Shown here piece by piece: positions 82 to 8,761 of a stretch of 8,761 bases of DNA. Source of the stretch: a virus (taxonomy: Duplodnaviria > Heunggongvirae > Uroviricota > Caudoviricetes). Numbering within the stretch: the first letter of the stretch is position 1; each line of letters opens with the position of its first letter. Where the stretch lies: the IMG/VR virus record IMGVR_UViG_2645727563_000007. One strand, 5' to 3'. The notes below the pieces were generated by a model. It worked only from the letters and a program-made list of their open reading frames with translations, ran no database searches and was not told the DNA's origin. The translations under genes and the position numbers were made by a program.

Positions 82-270
82 TTAGCGGGGGTCGGTATGG
101 TTATCTGTTCTGGTCCTGTCCTTGAGGTCAAACGACCATTCACGACCAAACAATCTGAACACGATAAACACTCTGACGATGAAATAGCGAAGTAGTAGGC
201 CTGCAATAAGTCCAATACCTCCACCAGCCCAAACATCAGGTGACCCCAGTTCAGGAGGGAGATTTACCAT
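82..270 (-). CDS. small predicted single-pass membrane protein (62 aa from internal ATG; the ORF extends to 306)
   Basis: ORF on - strand. The internal ATG (plus 268-270) is preceded by AGGA (revcomp of plus 277-280) at 6-nt spacing; the upstream ATG at 306 has no Shine-Dalgarno. Product MVNLPPELGSPDVWAGGGIGLIAGLLLRYFIVRVFIVFRLFGREW... has one hydrophobic helix then a charged tail. No family recognised. Confidence 0.3.
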   Translation of the reverse strand: MVNLPPELGSPDVWAGGGIGLIAGLLLRYFIVRVFIVFRLFGREWSFDLKDRTRTDNHTDPR

Positions 271-433
271 TAAATTTCCTGTGTGCAATGCAATACCATG
301 TGACATACATAGTTGATTCGGTTAGTTGGGCTTGTACCAACCCCTATCGAATAAACCTCATAGCCACGCCTCATATTTTACTCTCCCCATAGAACCATTA
401 TACCACAGATGTTAATAAAATGTTAAAAAATGC

Positions 434-462
434 TTGACATTAGTCTTTGAAAATGCTAGTAT
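434..462 (+). promoter_or_regulatory. sigma70-type promoter: -35 TTGACA (434-439), 17-bp spacer, extended -10 TGcTAGTAT (454-462)
   Basis: Perfect -35 hexamer, optimal 17-bp spacer, TG-extended -10 with conserved A2 and T6, AT-rich upstream tract; about 50 bp upstream of the first ATG of the 512-1823 operon. Confidence 0.45.
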
Positions 463-511
463 TGTCTATATGGTTAACAGAGAATTAACAATTATAAGGA
501 CTGGCTTATGA

Positions 512-1069
512 ATGAACGACAGAGAATTTAGAGCGATGCTTCAGGCATCAAAAGAACGCAACAAGCACAACTCCTACGCTTACACAAACAATCCCACCAG
601 CTACGAATTACCCAAGTTCACCAAGAAAGAACGCAAAGGCATTGACGAAGTAATTCGGGCAATTACACCGAGGAGTCGTTATATGTCAACCAGAAAGAGC
701 ACCCAGAACACTATTAAAAATTATTTGGCTAACTTTGACAGTTACGAGCAGTTACCAAGCAAGCTTGATGATATTTTTATTGGGTTCTGTAGAAGTGAAG
801 GTCACCCGAAATACAACAAAAAACTATTTTATCTTCTAAAGAATCTTGATGAAATTAACTCAGCTACCGTGACAAATTATCTTCAGCGACAAGCAACCAG
901 ACTTAGCTACGAATTACCAAGCGATAAATATTGTGCATTGCTTGCTGTAATGTGTGCAAAGCTAATTGGTATTGTTGAACATCATATTGCCGTTGGGAAT
1001 ATTGAGCCAATGGAAAACGAGCAACCAGATTTCGAGTTTGACCCGTATTTAGTTACAGAGGAATTTTAA
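512..1069 (+). CDS. hypothetical protein, 185 aa (first gene of a coupled four-gene operon)
   Basis: ORF track; AAGGA (496-500) upstream of ATG 512; stop codon directly abuts the next start (TAA 1067-1069, ATG 1070). No domain recognised by eye. Confidence 0.6.
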   Translation: MNDREFRAMLQASKERNKHNSYAYTNNPTSYELPKFTKKERKGIDEVIRAITPRSRYMSTRKSTQNTIKNYLANFDSYEQLPSKLDDIFIGFCRSEGHPKYNKKLFYLLKNLDEINSATVTNYLQRQATRLSYELPSDKYCALLAVMCAKLIGIVEHHIAVGNIEPMENEQPDFEFDPYLVTEEF

Positions 1070-1348
1070 ATGAAGAAACACACTTTGACCCGTATTTCAG
1101 AGGAAGCTTTTAACGAGCTTGCCAGAATTAAACGAGCTACTAACCTGCCTCATCAGACTGTTATGCAGCTTGCAATTGCTAAAGAGGTCACTGAGTCGGA
1201 TTTACTTAAATATCCAGTCTCTAAAGGTCGTAAGCACATCCGAATTACTCAGGACGCTTTAGATACTTTGAAGGCACTTAACGGCTTTAAGATTGATATT
1301 GCCCGTCTATTGAGTCTTAAGATTCACAAGTTAGCGATGGAGGTCTGA
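1070..1348 (+). CDS. ribbon-helix-helix (CopG/Arc-like) DNA-binding protein, apparently two tandem RHH units, 92 aa
   Basis: SD AGAGGA (1057-1062) 7 nt upstream. N-terminus MKKHTLTRISEEAFNELARIKRATNLPHQTVMQLAIAKEV has the beta-strand / helix / helix pattern of CopG-type RHH proteins; a second similar unit RKHIRITQDALDTLKALNGFKIDIARLLSLKI follows. Confidence 0.5.
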   Translation: MKKHTLTRISEEAFNELARIKRATNLPHQTVMQLAIAKEVTESDLLKYPVSKGRKHIRITQDALDTLKALNGFKIDIARLLSLKIHKLAMEV

Positions 1349-1350
1349 TT

Positions 1351-1623
1351 ATGAAGCAATGGCGAGATGATATTAAACGGTTCTTTGCAACTTACTTCAT
1401 GATTAATTACGAAACAGGAATGCTTGAATGGATTGATGGCGGAGAGGTTAAGACAAGAGATGATGCTTACGGTAATCCAATGATTCGTTATGGCACTCGT
1501 GATTATTATGTGAAGTATGTCATCTGGTTTTTGCATCATGAAGTTCAGGCAACTAAAAAGATTATCTTCAGGGATGGTAATAAAAGAAATTGCCACCCAA
1601 ACAATTTACTACAGGAGATTTAA
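1351..1623 (+). CDS. HNH_3-like (homing-endonuclease-type) small protein, 90 aa; canonical catalytic His apparently substituted
   Basis: SD GGAGG (1339-1343); start 2 bp after the previous stop. C-terminal ...YVKYVIWFLHHEVQATKKIIFRDGNKRNCHPNNL resembles the HNH_3 pattern (hR.vW ... vDHiDGN..NN...NL), but the DH preceding DGN reads FR. Confidence 0.4.
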   Translation: MKQWRDDIKRFFATYFMINYETGMLEWIDGGEVKTRDDAYGNPMIRYGTRDYYVKYVIWFLHHEVQATKKIIFRDGNKRNCHPNNLLQEI

Positions 1624-1823
1624 TGTTATGTATTAAATTCGAATATTTGACAGATAAAATGATTAAGCATGTATCAGACCTGCTCATCAAAGAAGATGGT
1701 TTCGGTGATGTTTGCAATCCAAAAGATATCTTCATTCACGCCACCAGCCCAAACGAAACATTAAAAACAGCAGTTACAGCGGAATGGTTTGAACGAAATA
1801 AGACAGAATTAGGTTATTGGTAG
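1623..1823 (+). CDS. hypothetical protein, 66 aa (start reassigned to ATG 1623)
   Basis: ATG at 1623 overlaps the previous stop (TAATG); SD AGGAG (1613-1617) at 5-nt spacing. The track's longer ORF from 1590 uses a TTG start inside the upstream gene with no SD. Confidence 0.45.
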   Translation: MLCIKFEYLTDKMIKHVSDLLIKEDGFGDVCNPKDIFIHATSPNETLKTAVTAEWFERNKTELGYW

Positions 1824-2002: not shown

Positions 2003-2326
2003 ATGAACAATTTCCCGCTACAGATTTTCGTTGATAGCGACACCGCTATGATGGTGCAAAGCTTCATTGATGCAGGTATTAGCATTGACTTTGACAGGCT
2101 GTTAAAGCTAATGGCTGAGAACTCAGAAACAATCGAAGATTTTATTCAGGAAATTGAAACTGGTGAACCACGTTTTATGTTTCCTGTTACCGACTCAAGC
2201 ATGAAAAGGCTTGTTATCGAAGAAACTAACAAATACAGCGTTAGCCCTGAAAAATATCTCAAGGCGGCTATAGCAATTTTGTACAGCGATAATATTCTGG
2301 TGACGGATTCGAAGGTGGTGCATTAA
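2003..2326 (+). CDS. hypothetical acidic protein, 107 aa
   Basis: ORF with AAGGAG (1987-1992) upstream of ATG 2003. By hand count about 18 Asp+Glu against about 9 Lys+Arg. No family recognised. Confidence 0.55.
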   Translation: MNNFPLQIFVDSDTAMMVQSFIDAGISIDFDRLLKLMAENSETIEDFIQEIETGEPRFMFPVTDSSMKRLVIEETNKYSVSPEKYLKAAIAILYSDNILVTDSKVVH

Positions 2327-2403
2327 TGGGTTTAATAATTGCTTGGACGCTGTTAGGGTTATTTGTTGGTTGCTGGATGGGTAACACAGTAAATAGAAAT
2401 TGA
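2326..2403 (+). CDS. small hydrophobic peptide, 25 aa (MGLIIAWTLLGLFVGCWMGNTVNRN), candidate
   Basis: ATG overlaps the stop of the 107-aa gene (TAATG at 2324-2328), suggesting translational coupling. One predicted transmembrane helix. Below the ORF-track length cutoff, so supported only by coupling and hydrophobicity. Confidence 0.3.
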   Translation: MGLIIAWTLLGLFVGCWMGNTVNRN

Positions 2404-2427
2404 TGTTACCAATCTGTTAAAAAGCTG

Positions 2428-2456
2428 TTGACAAATAACCTTGAGCATGACATAAT
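2428..2456 (+). promoter_or_regulatory. sigma70-type promoter: -35 TTGACA (2428-2433), 17-bp spacer, -10 CATAAT (2451-2456)
   Basis: Perfect -35, 17-bp spacer, 5/6 -10, preceded by an A-rich UP-like tract (TTAAAAAG). No long ORF follows for about 430 bp. Confidence 0.5.
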
Positions 2457-2658
2457 TGTATATATGAGGATAGTCTTCTATCCGAAGTCTATAGGGAGAG
2501 CAATTCTCCTTGAATTAAAATATTAATCGTCTCTACATCGATGATAACTATATTCTGAGTTGGAAAGGTGCAATGCTTTTCGTCATGGCCTTTCAGTTTA
2601 GTCTGAGAGGCTATCTCAAAAAGTGCTTAATCATTCATTATTGAACCCTTACAGCTTT

Positions 2659-2688
2659 GCCCTAACTCATGATTAGGGCGTTTTCTTT
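2659..2688 (+). terminator. intrinsic terminator: stem GCCCTAA / TTAGGGC, 7-nt loop, then GTTTTCTTT
   Basis: Perfect 7-bp stem (2659-2665 / 2673-2679) followed by a U-rich tract (2681-2688). Confidence 0.5.
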
Positions 2689-3926: not shown

Positions 3927-6059
3927 ATGAGCAAATTCACAGTTGATAGTTTTATCGTTGAGCTAGGCTTCAGCGAGAACGTTATTAAGGGCTTGCAAAG
4001 AGTTGAAAAGGCAGCTTTGCAGTCAGCACAAAGAATTGAAAAGAACCTAAATAAAGGTTTCAGGATTAATACAAAGCAGCTTGATAGTAATTTAACGGCT
4101 TCTTTAAAGTCAATGGAAGGGAAGATTAATAAGACCTTTGACCGTCTGGAAGCTAGAGCACGAAGCACAAAAGTTTTCCAGTTTACCACCAGATTTAATG
4201 ACACTGTTAATCCTCCAAAACAACCGAGACAGCCACGAATTAGCGGCAACAGAGCAATCACAGCAGCTTATTCAGCTAATATGACCAAGCTGAAAGGTCT
4301 TAACCCAATTGTCGAGAAATACATCAAATCTCAGTTTTACGGGCTATCTGCTAAAGCTGGGTCAATGGATAATTCAAAATTCAATGAGAAGTTGGCTCAA
4401 TTAAATGCTTCGGTCAGAGAAGCAATTGCTAAAGCCAGAGGCCATACATCCACCAGCATTAACGGTGACAGAGCAGCTAGCAGTCTTGATAATCTGTCTT
4501 TAGCGGCGGTTAAAACAGCAGGTGCATTTATCAGCTTTCAGGCTGTACTATCCGCTTATCAGCGAGTAATGGAAGTTGGCCTTCAACGTGCATCATCGGA
4601 AAGAAGTATTGATTTCGTATTCGGTGACCAAAGTACACAGGTCAAAAAGTTCATTCAAGATTTAACTCAGATTACTGGGATGGACACAACCGAAACACAA
4701 GCACAGTTTGCTTCATTTGGTGCATCTGCAAAGAACACGATGGGTCTTGAAGGGTCAGAAGAGTTATTTAAAAACCTTACAGGTTATGCTCGTTTAATGG
4801 GTCGTTCAGATGAGCAGATTCAAAGAGCATTAACCGCAGTGTCGCAGATGGCTTCTAAGGGTCAGGTGATGTCTGAGGAGCTGAAGGGGCAACTATCTGA
4901 AGCTTTACCGGGTGCTACTCAGGCATTTGCAAAGGCTTTAGGTCTGACTGAAAAACAGCTTTTCGATAAGATGAAAAATGGTGATGTTAAAGCCTCTGAT
5001 GCACTCCCTAAATTTGCTAAAGAACTTGGTTCACAGATTAATTCAAGAGGTGGCTGGAAAGCTATTCAGGACTCTACGCAGACAATGCTAGGGAACTTGA
5101 AGAATACTTGGAACAACTCACTAACGGATATTTTCAAAGGTTCTGAAGATGGTTTGCAGGACTTCACAAGAAGCTTGACCAATCTTTTAAACGCTCTTGG
5201 TGGAACTGGTAAAACATTAGGTGAAAGTTTTGGTAGCTTGATGACTGATATGTCACATGGTGTCGATTCATTGACTGATATTTCTTACAAGGTGAGAGCT
5301 TTCTTTGATGAGGTGACATTAGCTTACCGTTCACTAAATGACACTCAGAAAAAAATTGTTGACGGTTTATCTGATGGGTTAATTGATGGTTTGAAGATGC
5401 TTGCTGTAGCTGTTACTGCTCAAAAGGCTGCAAATGTAGCTGGAGGCTTGTTAAACCTTGCAAATGCTGTTACTTCATTCGGTGATGCTGTTAATAAAGC
5501 TAAAGCTGGCAAGGCTGGTTCTTCAGGTGGTGCGCTAAGTAAAGTCGGTAGAGTTGTCCTTTATGCTGAGTTGGTGAACTTTGCTCTTGATAATTTAAAC
5601 CCTGAAGCTGCTAAGAATCCGAACTTACATCAATCAGGTATTGGCACAGAAACAAACTTCAACCCTGAATACAAAGGCGATTCATCTAAACCAAACCAAA
5701 TTAATGAGGGATGGGCTAAGATTGGTAGTTCTATCGCTGACTGGTTTAATGGTGCAGCTAATAAAATTGCTAACTTCCAAGAGCCAATGAGTAACCTTGT
5801 TAATAACACACAATCAACTCCACCAGCTATCACAGGTGACATGGTTAATAGCAATGCTCAACTTGCAATGACTATTAGTGAACTATCACGCAAGGTAGAC
5901 GCTTTAACAGTAGAAGCTAAGAAGCCCTTGTCAGTTAATATCACTGGTGAAGCAACTGTTAGACCGGATGAACCAGCTTTCTTTAATTTCAGTCAATCGG
6001 CTAATGACCAGTTCACGCAGGATATGCTCTTAAGTTCAAGCTATCCAGAGGAAGAATGA
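3927..6059 (+). CDS. phage tail tape-measure-domain protein, 710 aa
   Basis: SD AAGAGGTG (3911-3918). Central segment ...QMASKGQVMSEELKGQLSEALPGATQAFAKALGLTEKQLFDKMKNGDVKASDALPKFAKELG... matches the conserved tape-measure motif. Predicted helical N-terminal part and Gly/Ala/Ser/Asn-rich C-terminal part are typical of these proteins. Confidence 0.8.
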   Translation: MSKFTVDSFIVELGFSENVIKGLQRVEKAALQSAQRIEKNLNKGFRINTKQLDSNLTASLKSMEGKINKTFDRLEARARSTKVFQFTTRFNDTVNPPKQPRQPRISGNRAITAAYSANMTKLKGLNPIVEKYIKSQFYGLSAKAGSMDNSKFNEKLAQLNASVREAIAKARGHTSTSINGDRAASSLDNLSLAAVKTAGAFISFQAVLSAYQRVMEVGLQRASSERSIDFVFGDQSTQVKKFIQDLTQITGMDTTETQAQFASFGASAKNTMGLEGSEELFKNLTGYARLMGRSDEQIQRALTAVSQMASKGQVMSEELKGQLSEALPGATQAFAKALGLTEKQLFDKMKNGDVKASDALPKFAKELGSQINSRGGWKAIQDSTQTMLGNLKNTWNNSLTDIFKGSEDGLQDFTRSLTNLLNALGGTGKTLGESFGSLMTDMSHGVDSLTDISYKVRAFFDEVTLAYRSLNDTQKKIVDGLSDGLIDGLKMLAVAVTAQKAANVAGGLLNLANAVTSFGDAVNKAKAGKAGSSGGALSKVGRVVLYAELVNFALDNLNPEAAKNPNLHQSGIGTETNFNPEYKGDSSKPNQINEGWAKIGSSIADWFNGAANKIANFQEPMSNLVNNTQSTPPAITGDMVNSNAQLAMTISELSRKVDALTVEAKKPLSVNITGEATVRPDEPAFFNFSQSANDQFTQDMLLSSSYPEEE

Positions 6060-6158: not shown

Positions 6159-6208
6159 ATTTCAAAGGCTTGGTTAAAAATGATTAAAATACACTAAGCC
6201 TTTGAAAT
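6159..6208. repeat. perfect 13-bp inverted repeat ATTTCAAAGGCTT / AAGCCTTTGAAAT (extendable to 16 bp), ending 2 nt before the next gene's SD
   Basis: Arms at 6159-6171 and 6196-6208 are exact reverse complements; three further pairs (one G.U) extend the helix; SD AAGGAG at 6211-6216. Confidence 0.55.
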
Positions 6209-6222
6209 CAAAGGAGAATTTA

Positions 6223-6996
6223 ATGATTTACTCTAATCAGATTCGTTACAGTGGCAAAGATGGCATCTATTTCCACTTAAGAGATAATGTAGATGCCTTC
6301 TTAACCTTATCAGCAACTGAAAATATGGAATTTGACAGCCCTATGCAGGTAACTACACAGAACATGCAATCAGGGCAAACCGTTACAGATAATGTGCAAA
6401 GAGCACCCAGAACAATCACTATTAGTGGTGTCGTTGTAGTTGGCTATGAAGGAAGCTTATTATTAACTCGTCAGGGTCAATTAGTAGAAAACTTCATTGA
6501 CACTCTCGAAAGCTGGCGTGACCAGAAGCAAATTATTTCGGTTATCTGTAAGGACGGAATTAAAATTGATGATTCCATTATTACGAGTTTTAAAGCCTCT
6601 AAAGATGTTGGAATTTCAAATGGTCTAAGAATCCAGCTAACTTTTCAGGAAATTAACTTCAAAGCCATTGTAGGGCAAACTGATGTTTCAGCAGCTACTG
6701 GCAAAACTGCTACCACGAATGACGGTGGTGCTACCAGTAAGAAGAATGCGGGTAACGTGACTACTGAACGCAATAACGCACCTATGCTGATGTGTCAGGA
6801 ACTGTACAGTTACTCAGCATCTGAGCTATCTGATGAAGCGCTAAGGGTCCGTAGCAATTGCTCTAAAAATGTCACGGTGAAAGATGGTGTAAGCACCTTC
6901 ACAGCCTCAGCTAATGAGCAGGCTTCAAAAGTGCTTAAGTCGGGTAATGCTTTACGGAAGTTTTCTGTGAATCCGAATAAGAAGGGCACTTATTGA
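6223..6996 (+). CDS. hypothetical protein, 257 aa; by position possibly a distal tail (Dit-like) protein
   Basis: Start set at ATG 6223 with SD AAGGAG (6211-6216) rather than the track's TTG 6202. Immediately follows the tape-measure gene, the usual position of Dit in siphovirus tail modules; sequence looks beta-rich. Function is inferred from position only. Confidence 0.55.
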
Positions 6997-7028: not shown

Positions 7029-8549
7029 TTACAGTTGATAAGCGTCAATATCCAGTAGCTCTTTATCAGCAATTTCAAAGATTGGTGACCCATCATTTAG
7101 CGGTAACGGGTTTGTAGGTATGGTGATTTCAGTGTCGTTCTGTAGCGTTACAGTTACCGAATCCTTACCCAATGTAAGCCCTTTTAGATGCTTGGACAAA
7201 ATCAACTGACACTCGACACGACCCACTTTAGTTGTCAGGTCAATATCTTTAAGCTGGGGTAGTTCCTTATCAGTGAGTGAAGCCTTACGCCTCATGTTAT
7301 CAATCGTGGTCTGTAGCTCTGTGCGCTTCTGGTTCAGTTCCTTAAGCTGAATTTTTAGTTCATCAATATCATCCATCTCAAGAAGTAGGGCGGTAGCTTT
7401 CTTGATTCTGGTTGTGACAATTTCAACCTCATGCTGTAGAGATGCAATCTCCCCCTCTGCTTCTCCATCATTCCCCACGTCAATCATTCCTAGAAAATTT
7501 TCAAGCATCCACTTATCAAACGGTTTACGCTTCAACGGAGGAACATCACAGCGACCATCAAGATGGTTATTGCACCGATAAACGCCCTGATACTTATTCT
7601 TAGTCCCTGTAGGGTGAACACTAGCCCCGCACTGACACCTAAACAGACCTTTGAAGATGTTAATCGTTAATGGATTATCACTTGCAGGTGTACGGCCTAT
7701 ACGGTTCTTACCAAGAATCTCTTGAGCTTTATTGAACGTTGAAGCATCTATAGCGGCTTCGTAGTAGTTCGGTATAGCGGGGCGGTCATTACGTTGTGAT
7801 GCTGGTAACGTGCCTATCGTTGTCTCTGACCTTAAGATGGTGCGTACAGAGTGAACACTAAACCCGTTAGCATCTTTACGGCGACTAAACGACTTTATAC
7901 CGTTGCTTTGAAGGTGACGGGCGATGTTATGCAGACTTTCACCACTTAGCAGCAGCTTGAAAATCAGTCTTACAGTCTCAGCGTGTTCATTGCACTTGAA
8001 AGTATCGGGGTCAATCCATCCGGGAACATTTCTTGTAAGACGCTGTTCACCAGCAAGGGCAAGCTTTGCACGTTGTTCCCATTTCTGACTAACACGGAAA
8101 GACTTCTGTTTACTCTCCTGATGCGCTATGTAGCTTTTAACCCGCTGAATGATTGAGATTCCTAAATCATCGGATAGAGCATCCCTTGTGTAGATTAGCC
8201 CATCCTGTAGAGTGTGAATCTCGATACCATGAGCAATAATGCGATTCATCAAGGCTTCTGTTTCAAGATGTTCAAGGCGGCCTATGCGGTCGATAGCTTC
8301 GACTAACAGAACTGTACCTTCTGAAAACTCCCCACTTTCAATACGGGAAAGCATATCCCCAAATTGCCCTGACAAGTGCTTACCTTTGTAACCGGATAGA
8401 CCCTCATCATTGAAAGATGCTACTACTTGAGCATCGCTATTCTTCTTCAACCATTGTTTGAACAGGTCGTTTTGTCGTCTGGTTGAATCTGCACCTTCAG
8501 CGCCTTGTATGGCTGAACTGTACCGAAGGTATGTAATTACGTGTCTCAT
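7029..8549 (-). CDS. large serine recombinase (serine integrase), 506 aa
   Basis: N-terminal resolvase-type catalytic domain (YLRYSSAIQ with the catalytic Ser; DEGLSGYKG; LLVEAIDRIGR), followed by a recombinase domain, a Cys-rich zinc-ribbon (FRCQCGASVHPTG...YRCNNHLDGRCD) and a C-terminal coiled-coil. SD GGGAG (revcomp of 8559-8563) 9 nt upstream of ATG. Confidence 0.9.
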   Translation of the reverse strand: MRHVITYLRYSSAIQGAEGADSTRRQNDLFKQWLKKNSDAQVVASFNDEGLSGYKGKHLSGQFGDMLSRIESGEFSEGTVLLVEAIDRIGRLEHLETEALMNRIIAHGIEIHTLQDGLIYTRDALSDDLGISIIQRVKSYIAHQESKQKSFRVSQKWEQRAKLALAGEQRLTRNVPGWIDPDTFKCNEHAETVRLIFKLLLSGESLHNIARHLQSNGIKSFSRRKDANGFSVHSVRTILRSETTIGTLPASQRNDRPAIPNYYEAAIDASTFNKAQEILGKNRIGRTPASDNPLTINIFKGLFRCQCGASVHPTGTKNKYQGVYRCNNHLDGRCDVPPLKRKPFDKWMLENFLGMIDVGNDGEAEGEIASLQHEVEIVTTRIKKATALLLEMDDIDELKIQLKELNQKRTELQTTIDNMRRKASLTDKELPQLKDIDLTTKVGRVECQLILSKHLKGLTLGKDSVTVTLQNDTEITIPTNPLPLNDGSPIFEIADKELLDIDAYQL

Positions 8550-8639
8550 GGTGATAAACTCCCATGCAATTGATTCTCATTTAAAGATGAACTTATAAAC
8601 GTTATGGCTAATGCTACAATGCCGAATAGCTACAATACA

Positions 8640-8761
8640 ATGACCCTTGATTTACCTCGCCGCTTCCCCTGGCCGACGTTACTTTCGGTCTGCATTCATG
8701 GTGCTGTTGTGGCGGGTCTGCTCTATACCTCGGTACATCAGGTTATTGAACTACCTGCGCC
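8640..8761 (+). CDS. tonB: TonB (energy transducer), N-terminal 40 codons; partial, continues beyond the window
   Basis: Translation MTLDLPRRFPWPTLLSVCIHGAVVAGLLYTSVHQVIELPA is recognised as the N-terminal signal-anchor region of Escherichia-type TonB; GC content is visibly higher than the upstream intergenic DNA. Confidence 0.9.
   Translation, partial: MTLDLPRRFPWPTLLSVCIHGAVVAGLLYTSVHQVIELPA

Follow-up and report, generated by a model that had tools for sequence, protein, structure and literature searches.

The window analyzed here is the whole 8,761-nucleotide stretch of virus record IMGVR_UViG_2645727563_000007 (Caudoviricetes), and our subject is an operon that begins at position 434, together with the chromosomal island of Escherichia coli to which it belongs. 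The segment from 434 to 1823 holds a rightward promoter, P_R, and four genes, g1 to g4 (Table 1). An earlier note, made from the sequence alone, had described four open reading frames with gaps of 0 to 2 bp or a TAATG overlap, each with its own Shine-Dalgarno sequence, and coordinates and junctions all matched that description. Between g1 and g2 there is no spacer (TAA then ATG, at 1069/1070), g2 and g3 are separated by 2 nucleotides (TGA-tt-ATG at 1348/1351), and g3 and g4 share a TAATG overlap at 1621-1625. A purine-rich Shine-Dalgarno sequence lies 7 to 12 nucleotides 5' of each start, with predicted anti-Shine-Dalgarno duplexes of -6.0 to -10.0 kcal/mol. The ratio of nonsynonymous to synonymous substitution (dN/dS) was 0.06 to 0.34 for g1, g2, g3, and g4, indicating purifying selection on all four.

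Promoter-like matches across the window numbered 18, against 20.9 expected from shuffled sequence, so there is no excess over chance and the case for P_R rests on conservation. The block at 396-493 had 91% mean pairwise identity over nine related loci, compared with 70% in its flanks and 76% in the coding DNA of g1. This conservation, with a match to consensus at 10 of 12 positions, upholds the near-consensus promoter that the earlier note had placed ahead of the operon. The four-gene extent held in part: the four genes are coupled, but the limit of the operon is wider. A terminator scan of the plus strand found none between 462 and 2658, and the operon probably extends past g4 (1823) through g5 and a micro-open reading frame (micro-ORF) to about 2403, with g5 probably cotranscribed with g1 to g4. 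The micro-ORF exists as two sequence types across loci.

Table 1. Features of the window, in order of position
Feature	Position	Strand	Description
Leftward small membrane-protein gene	82-270	-	AGGAA Shine-Dalgarno sequence; 58-62 amino acids, single-pass; in 8 of 9 loci; hydropathy peak ~2.2
Promoter P_L, leftward	397-426	-	TTAACA-18-TATAAT with TG; 11 of 12 consensus positions; invariant in 9 loci
Upstream operator pair	410-426	+	TGTTAA-N5-TGTTAA; -104 from the g1 ATG, same offset in 6 complete islands
Promoter P_R, rightward	434-462	+	TTGACA-17-TAGTAT, TG extended -10; 10 of 12 consensus positions; -35 invariant
Downstream operator pair	474-490	-	TGTTAA-N5-TGTTAA; opposite in orientation to the 410-426 pair; within the initial transcribed region
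g1	512-1069	+	185 amino acids; conserved helical protein with acidic/aromatic C-terminal tail
g2	1070-1348	+	92 amino acids; single-chain tandem ribbon-helix-helix DNA-binding protein (fold from structure)
g3	1351-1623	+	90 amino acids; truncated, probably inactive HNH_3 homing-endonuclease relative in variable slot
g4	1623-1823	+	66 amino acids; small conserved protein; no family or PDB match
g5	2003-2326	+	107 amino acids; conserved protein; in 9 of 9 loci; Shine-Dalgarno duplex -8.7 kcal/mol
Micro-ORF	2326-2403	+	25 codons, hydrophobic (MGLIIAWTLLGLFVGCWMGNTVNRN); TAATG-coupled to g5; reading frame kept in 8 of 9 loci
Three phased TGTTAA-type sites	2404-2431	+	TGTTAC, TGTTAA, TGTTGA; run into the -35 of the second promoter
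Second strong promoter	2428-2456	+	TTGACA-17-CATAAT with TG; 11 of 12 consensus positions; conserved in 9 loci
Intrinsic terminator	2658-2680	+	Ends the ~230-nucleotide untranslated transcript of the second promoter; would also end the P_R transcript
Tape-measure protein gene	3927-6059	+	PF20155, E 7e-18; chimera with Felixounavirus tape-measure protein ends
Tail tube initiator homolog ('baseplate' protein) gene	6202-6996	+	95-98% nucleotide identity to 212 phage records
Large serine recombinase (integrase) gene	7029-8549	-	Resolvase, Recombinase, and Zn_ribbon_recom families
Attachment core	8638-8650	+	CAATGACCCTTGA, 13 bp; overlaps the tonB start codon (ATG at 8640)

The second gene had been read as a tandem, CopG-like ribbon-helix-helix (RHH) DNA-binding protein, and structure bore out the tandem RHH reading. 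The g2 chain contains two beta-alpha-alpha RHH units (the RHH2 fold), with best structural matches to TraY, DndE, Arc, and AvtR; the top match is the relaxosome accessory protein TraY, and VirC2 was also matched. The two units and a short linker helix take up all 92 residues, and there is no toxin-binding tail. Against curated RHH families g2 scored below cut-off (13.4 bits with PF08870, cut-off 25; 17.2 bits with TIGR03184, cut-off 71.85); the search for sequence relatives returned only Pfam DndE at an E value of 0.096 and no PDB sequence match. The gene occurs as two allelic types, about 55 to 63% identical, that both keep the beta-strand residues HTLTR and HIRI. Thus, g2 shares its fold and architecture with TraY of the F plasmid, VirC2 of the Ti plasmid, DndE, and AvtR of an archaeal virus, but it has no detectable sequence relationship to them, is shorter, has no extra domain, and lies in no relaxase, dnd cluster, or oriT context. 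Arc, Mnt, CopG, and omega, RHH repressors of phages and plasmids, have the same DNA-binding fold but assemble it from two single-RHH chains; in g2, a predicted DNA binder, the two units are joined covalently.

The earlier note called the third gene HNH_3-like. As a short relative of HNH_3 it stands; as a member it does not, with a match to PF13392 (E 7.7e-5, 22.7 bits) under the gathering score of 24.8 and with the loss of a catalytic residue. The motif of g3 is IIFRDGNKRNCHPNNL; in the alignment, relatives have IIHRNGN...NL and WIDHIDGD...NL. The general-base histidine of the beta-beta-alpha-Me motif is therefore phenylalanine in g3 (IIFRDGN, compared with IIHRNGN and IDHIDGD in two relatives). 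These alignment partners are a 95-amino-acid paralog from related islands (L003), which passes HNH_3 at 34.3 bits, and a 174-amino-acid protein with HNH_3 and AP2 domains that is encoded in the left arm of related islands; g3 aligns over its full length to the N-terminal and HNH parts of the latter. The g3 protein ends four residues past the motif and has no AP2, NUMOD, or similar DNA-recognition domain; it is best described as a truncated version of the HNH_3-AP2 phage homing endonucleases (PF13392 with PF00847) from which it differs by the missing AP2 domain, the phenylalanine, and the score under the Pfam cut-off. The family of g3 comprises only 10 clusters, and several of these are frameshifted or fused to g4 by deletion. 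Among the relatives P0236, P0238, P0240, and P0241 we saw a g3-g4 deletion fusion and several frameshifts through the HNH motif. Because database variants are fused or frameshifted in this way, the sequences suggest that g3 is a decaying remnant of an HNH_3 homing endonuclease. Its presence varies among islands, as does its position relative to g4, in the manner of a free-standing homing-endonuclease gene.

The region after g2 is a variable slot. Slot arrangements were read from nine related loci among the 384 E. coli copies described below, and g1 and g2 were the sole constant genes, followed by at least five fillings: HNH gene then g4 (L001, this window), g4 then an HNH gene with its histidine intact (L003 and L004), g4 alone (L005), an unrelated 76-amino-acid protein (L012), and a 118- or 128-amino-acid protein with a C-terminal helix-turn-helix (L002, L013, and L014). 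When the 384 records were sampled at even spacing, 44 of 57 cassette copies had an annotated HNH gene and 13 (about 23%) had none. Like g2, g1 has two allelic types (~62 to 65% identical), and no fixed pairing holds between g1 type, g2 type, and slot contents.

That g1 and g4 match nothing recognizable, as the earlier note had it, remains correct, since neither belongs to a named family; g4, found before or after the HNH gene in three slot arrangements, gave no match in family searches or in the PDB. The C terminus of g1 (window positions 1015-1066) is a conserved acidic and aromatic tail, PDFEFDPYLVTEEF, which may resemble the protein-recruiting C-terminal tails of single-stranded-DNA-binding proteins. 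Distant homologs of g1 lie in other settings, and a Pfam search of them for extra domains gave no significant match. One (L007 to L009, 10001-10870 and 14906-17116) belongs to a serine-recombinase island of another kind that occupies a Band_7/qmcA-like gene and has a tape-measure protein closest to those of Pectobacterium and Felix-type Ounavirinae phages. Another (L010, 3104-3742) opens the early region of a contig from an SU10-like podophage, with an HNH gene after it.

Next, we considered the DNA around the promoters. Pairs of TGTTAA hexamers phased at 11 bp lie on both sides of P_R, and a run of three phased sites precedes the second promoter; the -35 hexamer of P_L (TTAACA) is itself a TGTTAA site from the pair at 410-426. 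With up to one mismatch, the phased pattern occurs 4 times in the window against 0.12 expected, and none of 200 shuffles reached 4. In six complete islands, the phased sites occupy the same three places and occur almost nowhere else. Because the pattern is enriched and keeps its positions across islands, a sequence-specific DNA-binding protein very probably controls the three promoters through phased TGTTAA, as judged from these sequence patterns. A scan of IMG/VR for triple TGTTAA had many unrelated contigs among the matches listed and says nothing about specificity.

A plausible binder, at just under an even chance, is g2, because it is constant in the family, is encoded behind a regulated promoter, and keeps its strand residues, and because a pseudo-dimeric RHH protein would read one site per molecule, with neighbors one helical turn apart. 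The omega and CopG repressors act through short repeats, phased at one turn, that overlap promoter hexamers, and the candidate operators at the g2 operon have the same layout. A search for phased repeats upstream of three distant g1 homologs (L006, L008, and L010) gave nothing convincing and did not separate g1 from g2 as the binder.

Two further transcription units adjoin these sites. The leftward membrane-protein gene is divergent from the operon, and the -35 of its promoter (426-397) is a TGTTAA site; Pfam gave no match for its product, which might act as a small toxin, resemble a holin, or serve in exclusion. P_R and the second promoter have upstream and initial-transcribed sequence in common. 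The ~230-nucleotide transcript of the second promoter, a possible small RNA or antitermination leader, has four conserved hairpins in which RNAalifold found almost no covariation; no Rfam family matched anywhere in the window. The terminator hairpin at 2658-2680 is also conserved, and in some loci its loop is inverted. Farther on, at about 2760-2800 and still 5' of the tail-gene block, another hairpin resembles a terminator.

The operon is part of an island with a fixed backbone. We found the cassette in 384 of 5,426 complete E. coli genomes (~7%), always in the chromosome, either upstream of tonB (at the start codon) or inside yecE. The g6-g7 segment was present in 403 genomes, nearly equal to the cassette count. 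A single-protein scan of 185,579 species genomes added Escherichia albertii and Citrobacter and no others; the island family is also widespread in Shigella sonnei. Every locus read contained a variable left arm, the leftward membrane gene, g1-g2-slot-g5-micro-ORF, ~500 nucleotides of noncoding DNA, g6, g7, and the genes for the tape-measure protein (TMP), the 'baseplate' protein, and a leftward large serine recombinase. Complete islands are 11.2 to 13.4 kb, and the window starts ~2.9 kb inside the left end. Both flanks match the empty site of strain K-12, with an overlap of 13 bp, and the attachment core is duplicated at both island ends. Co-occurrence of the four genes elsewhere, which the earlier note had proposed looking for, was not seen outside the island family: concatenated g1 to g4 had no tblastn match (E ≤ 0.01) in 50,697 phage or 72,556 plasmid records, and of the four, only g1 and g2 stay constant within the family. 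We found no description of the island or the operon in the literature.

Several side observations concern the insertion sites and the left arm. Insertion at the tonB start codon displaces the native tonB promoter, which lies ~11.7 kb away; a candidate replacement (TTGATT-17-TTATAA) is present at 8570-8598, in the island end. With this displacement, iron uptake may change, and so may sensitivity to colicins and to phages that depend on TonB. The yecE copy of E. coli O157:H7 E32511 (L004) may be SpLE2, a small integrative element of strain Sakai. One of 16 SpLE2 genes responded to SOS induction (PMC5931665). The left arm, from attL to the small membrane-protein gene, is a region of variable cargo (L001 623-2524; L005 8447-10733; L003 10014-10538) that includes an N6-adenine methyltransferase, a small invertase-type serine recombinase, an HNH-AP2 endonuclease, or unknown proteins, and it may be a hotspot for defense or accessory genes.

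Only the TMP and the tube initiator of the island have phage homologs. Searches with g5 to g7 of the same phage records (tblastn, E ≤ 0.01) were negative, as were profile and phmmer searches of the six-frame open reading frames of phage garuso (MN850566; L018 and L019) for island proteins. Compared with the garuso TMP, the island TMP is near-identical over ~45 N-terminal and ~10 C-terminal amino acids and 29% identical overall. Residues 13 to 190 of the island tube initiator are ~100% identical to garuso_119, and the protein is divergent only in its C-terminal baseplate-spanning extension. In Felixounavirus, the tail tube initiator is gp18 of phage Bas63 (PMC12609058). The two island proteins look like substitute tail parts fitted to the tail of a helper.

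The phage also carries the motif. The garuso genome has 8 exact phased TGTTAA pairs against 0.04 expected, and 6 of the 8 are crowded into 550 bp inside a gene-free stretch of 1.65 kb (48,952-50,603) flanked by two converging gene blocks, where one kilobase contains 18 TGTTAA hexamers. This stretch is conserved in 255 Felixounavirus-type records, with only an occasional repeat_region annotation, and the paper on the Felix O1 genome contains no discussion of it. Possible roles are those of an origin, a terminus, or a regulatory region.

Because it carries Felixounavirus-type tape-measure and tube-initiator genes, the island is most likely, on this comparative sequence evidence, a satellite-like parasite or antagonist of Felix-O1-type virulent phages. 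It has the integrase, the attachment sites, and a size within the ~5 to 20 kb of satellites, and three links tie it to a single helper group, Felixounavirus: the TMP ends, the tube initiator, and the phased TGTTAA motif. Satellites of strictly virulent phages, or parasites dedicated to them, are known in few cases, among them PLE of Vibrio cholerae and PICMI. Like these, the island is a small chromosomal element with a large serine recombinase tied to virulent phages, in this case by sequence and to one group of virulent myoviruses. Unlike PLE, it has no RepA/ori, capsid-remodeling, or packaging gene that we could find and carries a TMP and a tube initiator instead.

Several observations weigh against the reading of the island as a phage satellite and of the operon as its control region. 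Searches of Pfam, PHROGs, and NCBIfam recognized no replication, packaging, or capsid-remodeling or redirection gene in the island. Many copies have insertion sequences in the TMP or integrase gene (L003 17628-18856 and 20856-23158; L005 18581-19775; L016 14436-16237), and therefore a good fraction of the 384 copies is probably immobile or inactive; the island could instead be a defense island or a decaying relic. The lone TGTTAA hexamer is only mildly enriched in the window (15 against 8.6 expected, with 6 of 200 shuffles reaching 15). Furthermore, g1, a host factor, or a phage factor could be the TGTTAA binder in place of g2, and g1 and g4 both lack a functional assignment.

The earlier note had offered the architecture as that of toxin-antitoxin, abortive-infection, or lysogeny-control cassettes. 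In a cassette of the first two kinds, g2 would be an RHH antitoxin and autorepressor and g3, g4, or both would be a toxic effector released on infection. The layout does recall type II toxin-antitoxin operons with RHH antitoxins (the ParD, CcdA, RelB, and VapB types), in which a small RHH gene likewise precedes coupled small genes and the operators look autoregulatory; here too the small RHH gene lies directly 5' of small coupled genes behind a strong, operator-flanked promoter, and g4 is under purifying selection with no function assigned. However, we rejected this as the main explanation, and consider it very improbable, because the partner of g2 is not fixed (at least five gene sets follow it, the HNH gene is missing from about 23% of the sampled copies, and g2 allele types do not follow slot content in the nine loci), g2 has no C-terminal neutralizing extension, g3 has lost its catalytic histidine, and a search of PADLOC-DB 2.0 with g1 to g7 gave no match (the sole match in the island was a weak one of the TMP to ZorA). 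No recognizable toxin lies downstream of g2, given that g3 is a frequently frameshifted, subthreshold HNH_3 relative and g4 has no family, and the cassette was never found outside the island backbone. Scarcely more probable is a role in excision, in which g2, g1, or both would serve the large serine recombinase as recombination directionality factor or would regulate excision, much as small DNA-binding Xis proteins do. Small DNA-binding proteins encoded near a regulatory region are often phage Xis or directionality factors, and the island has a large serine recombinase with no directionality factor identified. Against this, such factors for serine integrases usually act through protein-protein contact and form no conserved family, and the phased TGTTAA sites are at promoters, with none adjoining the attachment core at 8638-8650.

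A replication or DNA-processing module is a less remote alternative that we still regard as unlikely. In such a module, g1 would be initiator-like and recruit the host or phage replisome through its acidic and aromatic tail, g2 would bend DNA at iterons in the manner of TraY or VirC2, and the TGTTAA arrays (island 400-490 and 2404-2431, and that of the phage) would be origin iterons, so that the island exploits the origin machinery of the phage. The structural matches of g2 to TraY and VirC2 are consistent with this, as are the lack of a recognizable Rep or primase in the island, the position of the phage array in a gene-free region between two converging transcription units, unlike a region of divergent promoters, and the conservation of the g1 tail (DFEFDPY...EEF), with an acidic and aromatic stretch after the core in distant g1 homologs as well. 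However, the fold of g1 matches no known initiator, and no AT-rich unwinding element or DnaA box turned up, although none was searched for. Operators fit better than iterons because, in the island, the sites fall precisely on the -35 hexamers of three strong promoters. Given these alternatives, we favor, with reasonable but not high confidence, the reading that 434-1823 is the promoter-proximal part of a rightward early or control operon of the island and not a toxin-antitoxin or abortive-infection cassette. The "regulatory module" that the earlier note had left as an option fits this reading.

As a control operon, the locus would have a constant core of g1, a phage-derived helical protein, and g2, with g3 and g4 filling the variable slot. 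The g2 protein would bind the 11-bp-phased TGTTAA sites, which lie on both sides of P_R, share bases with the -35 of P_L, and extend into that of the second promoter. Such binding would control how strongly three units are expressed: the operon itself, the leftward membrane-protein gene, and the unit behind the second promoter. We infer the identity of the binding protein, the direction of regulation, and the link to infection from these arrangements. Incoming, replicating phage DNA might titrate the regulator through its TGTTAA array and so switch the island on; alternatively, the regulator might bind the phage array and interfere with the phage. Titration and sensing of this kind is a speculative model to which we give only a low probability. 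Equally tentative is its wider form, in which the operon would be the sensing switch of an undescribed group of E. coli, Shigella, Salmonella, and Citrobacter satellites of Felix-O1-type phages, with a tandem RHH protein that is titrated by, or redirected onto, at least a dozen phage sites.

Taken together, these results have a direct consequence for annotation, in that g2 should be called a tandem RHH DNA-binding protein and g3 should not be named an active HNH endonuclease. The operon itself is an ordinary-looking regulatory module, and its interest lies in the island under its control and in the operator motif that it has in common with a phage. If it is a control switch, it would offer a simple handle on how a mobile element senses a virulent phage; the host is tractable, and the presumptive partner phages, Felix O1 and the BASEL phage Bas63, are standard laboratory and phage-therapy phages. 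If the sensing switch is true, activation of the island, including its substitute tape-measure and tube-initiator proteins, would be coupled to the copy number of helper DNA. Should those substitute proteins poison or hijack Felix-O1 tails, this would explain strain-to-strain differences in susceptibility to these phages.

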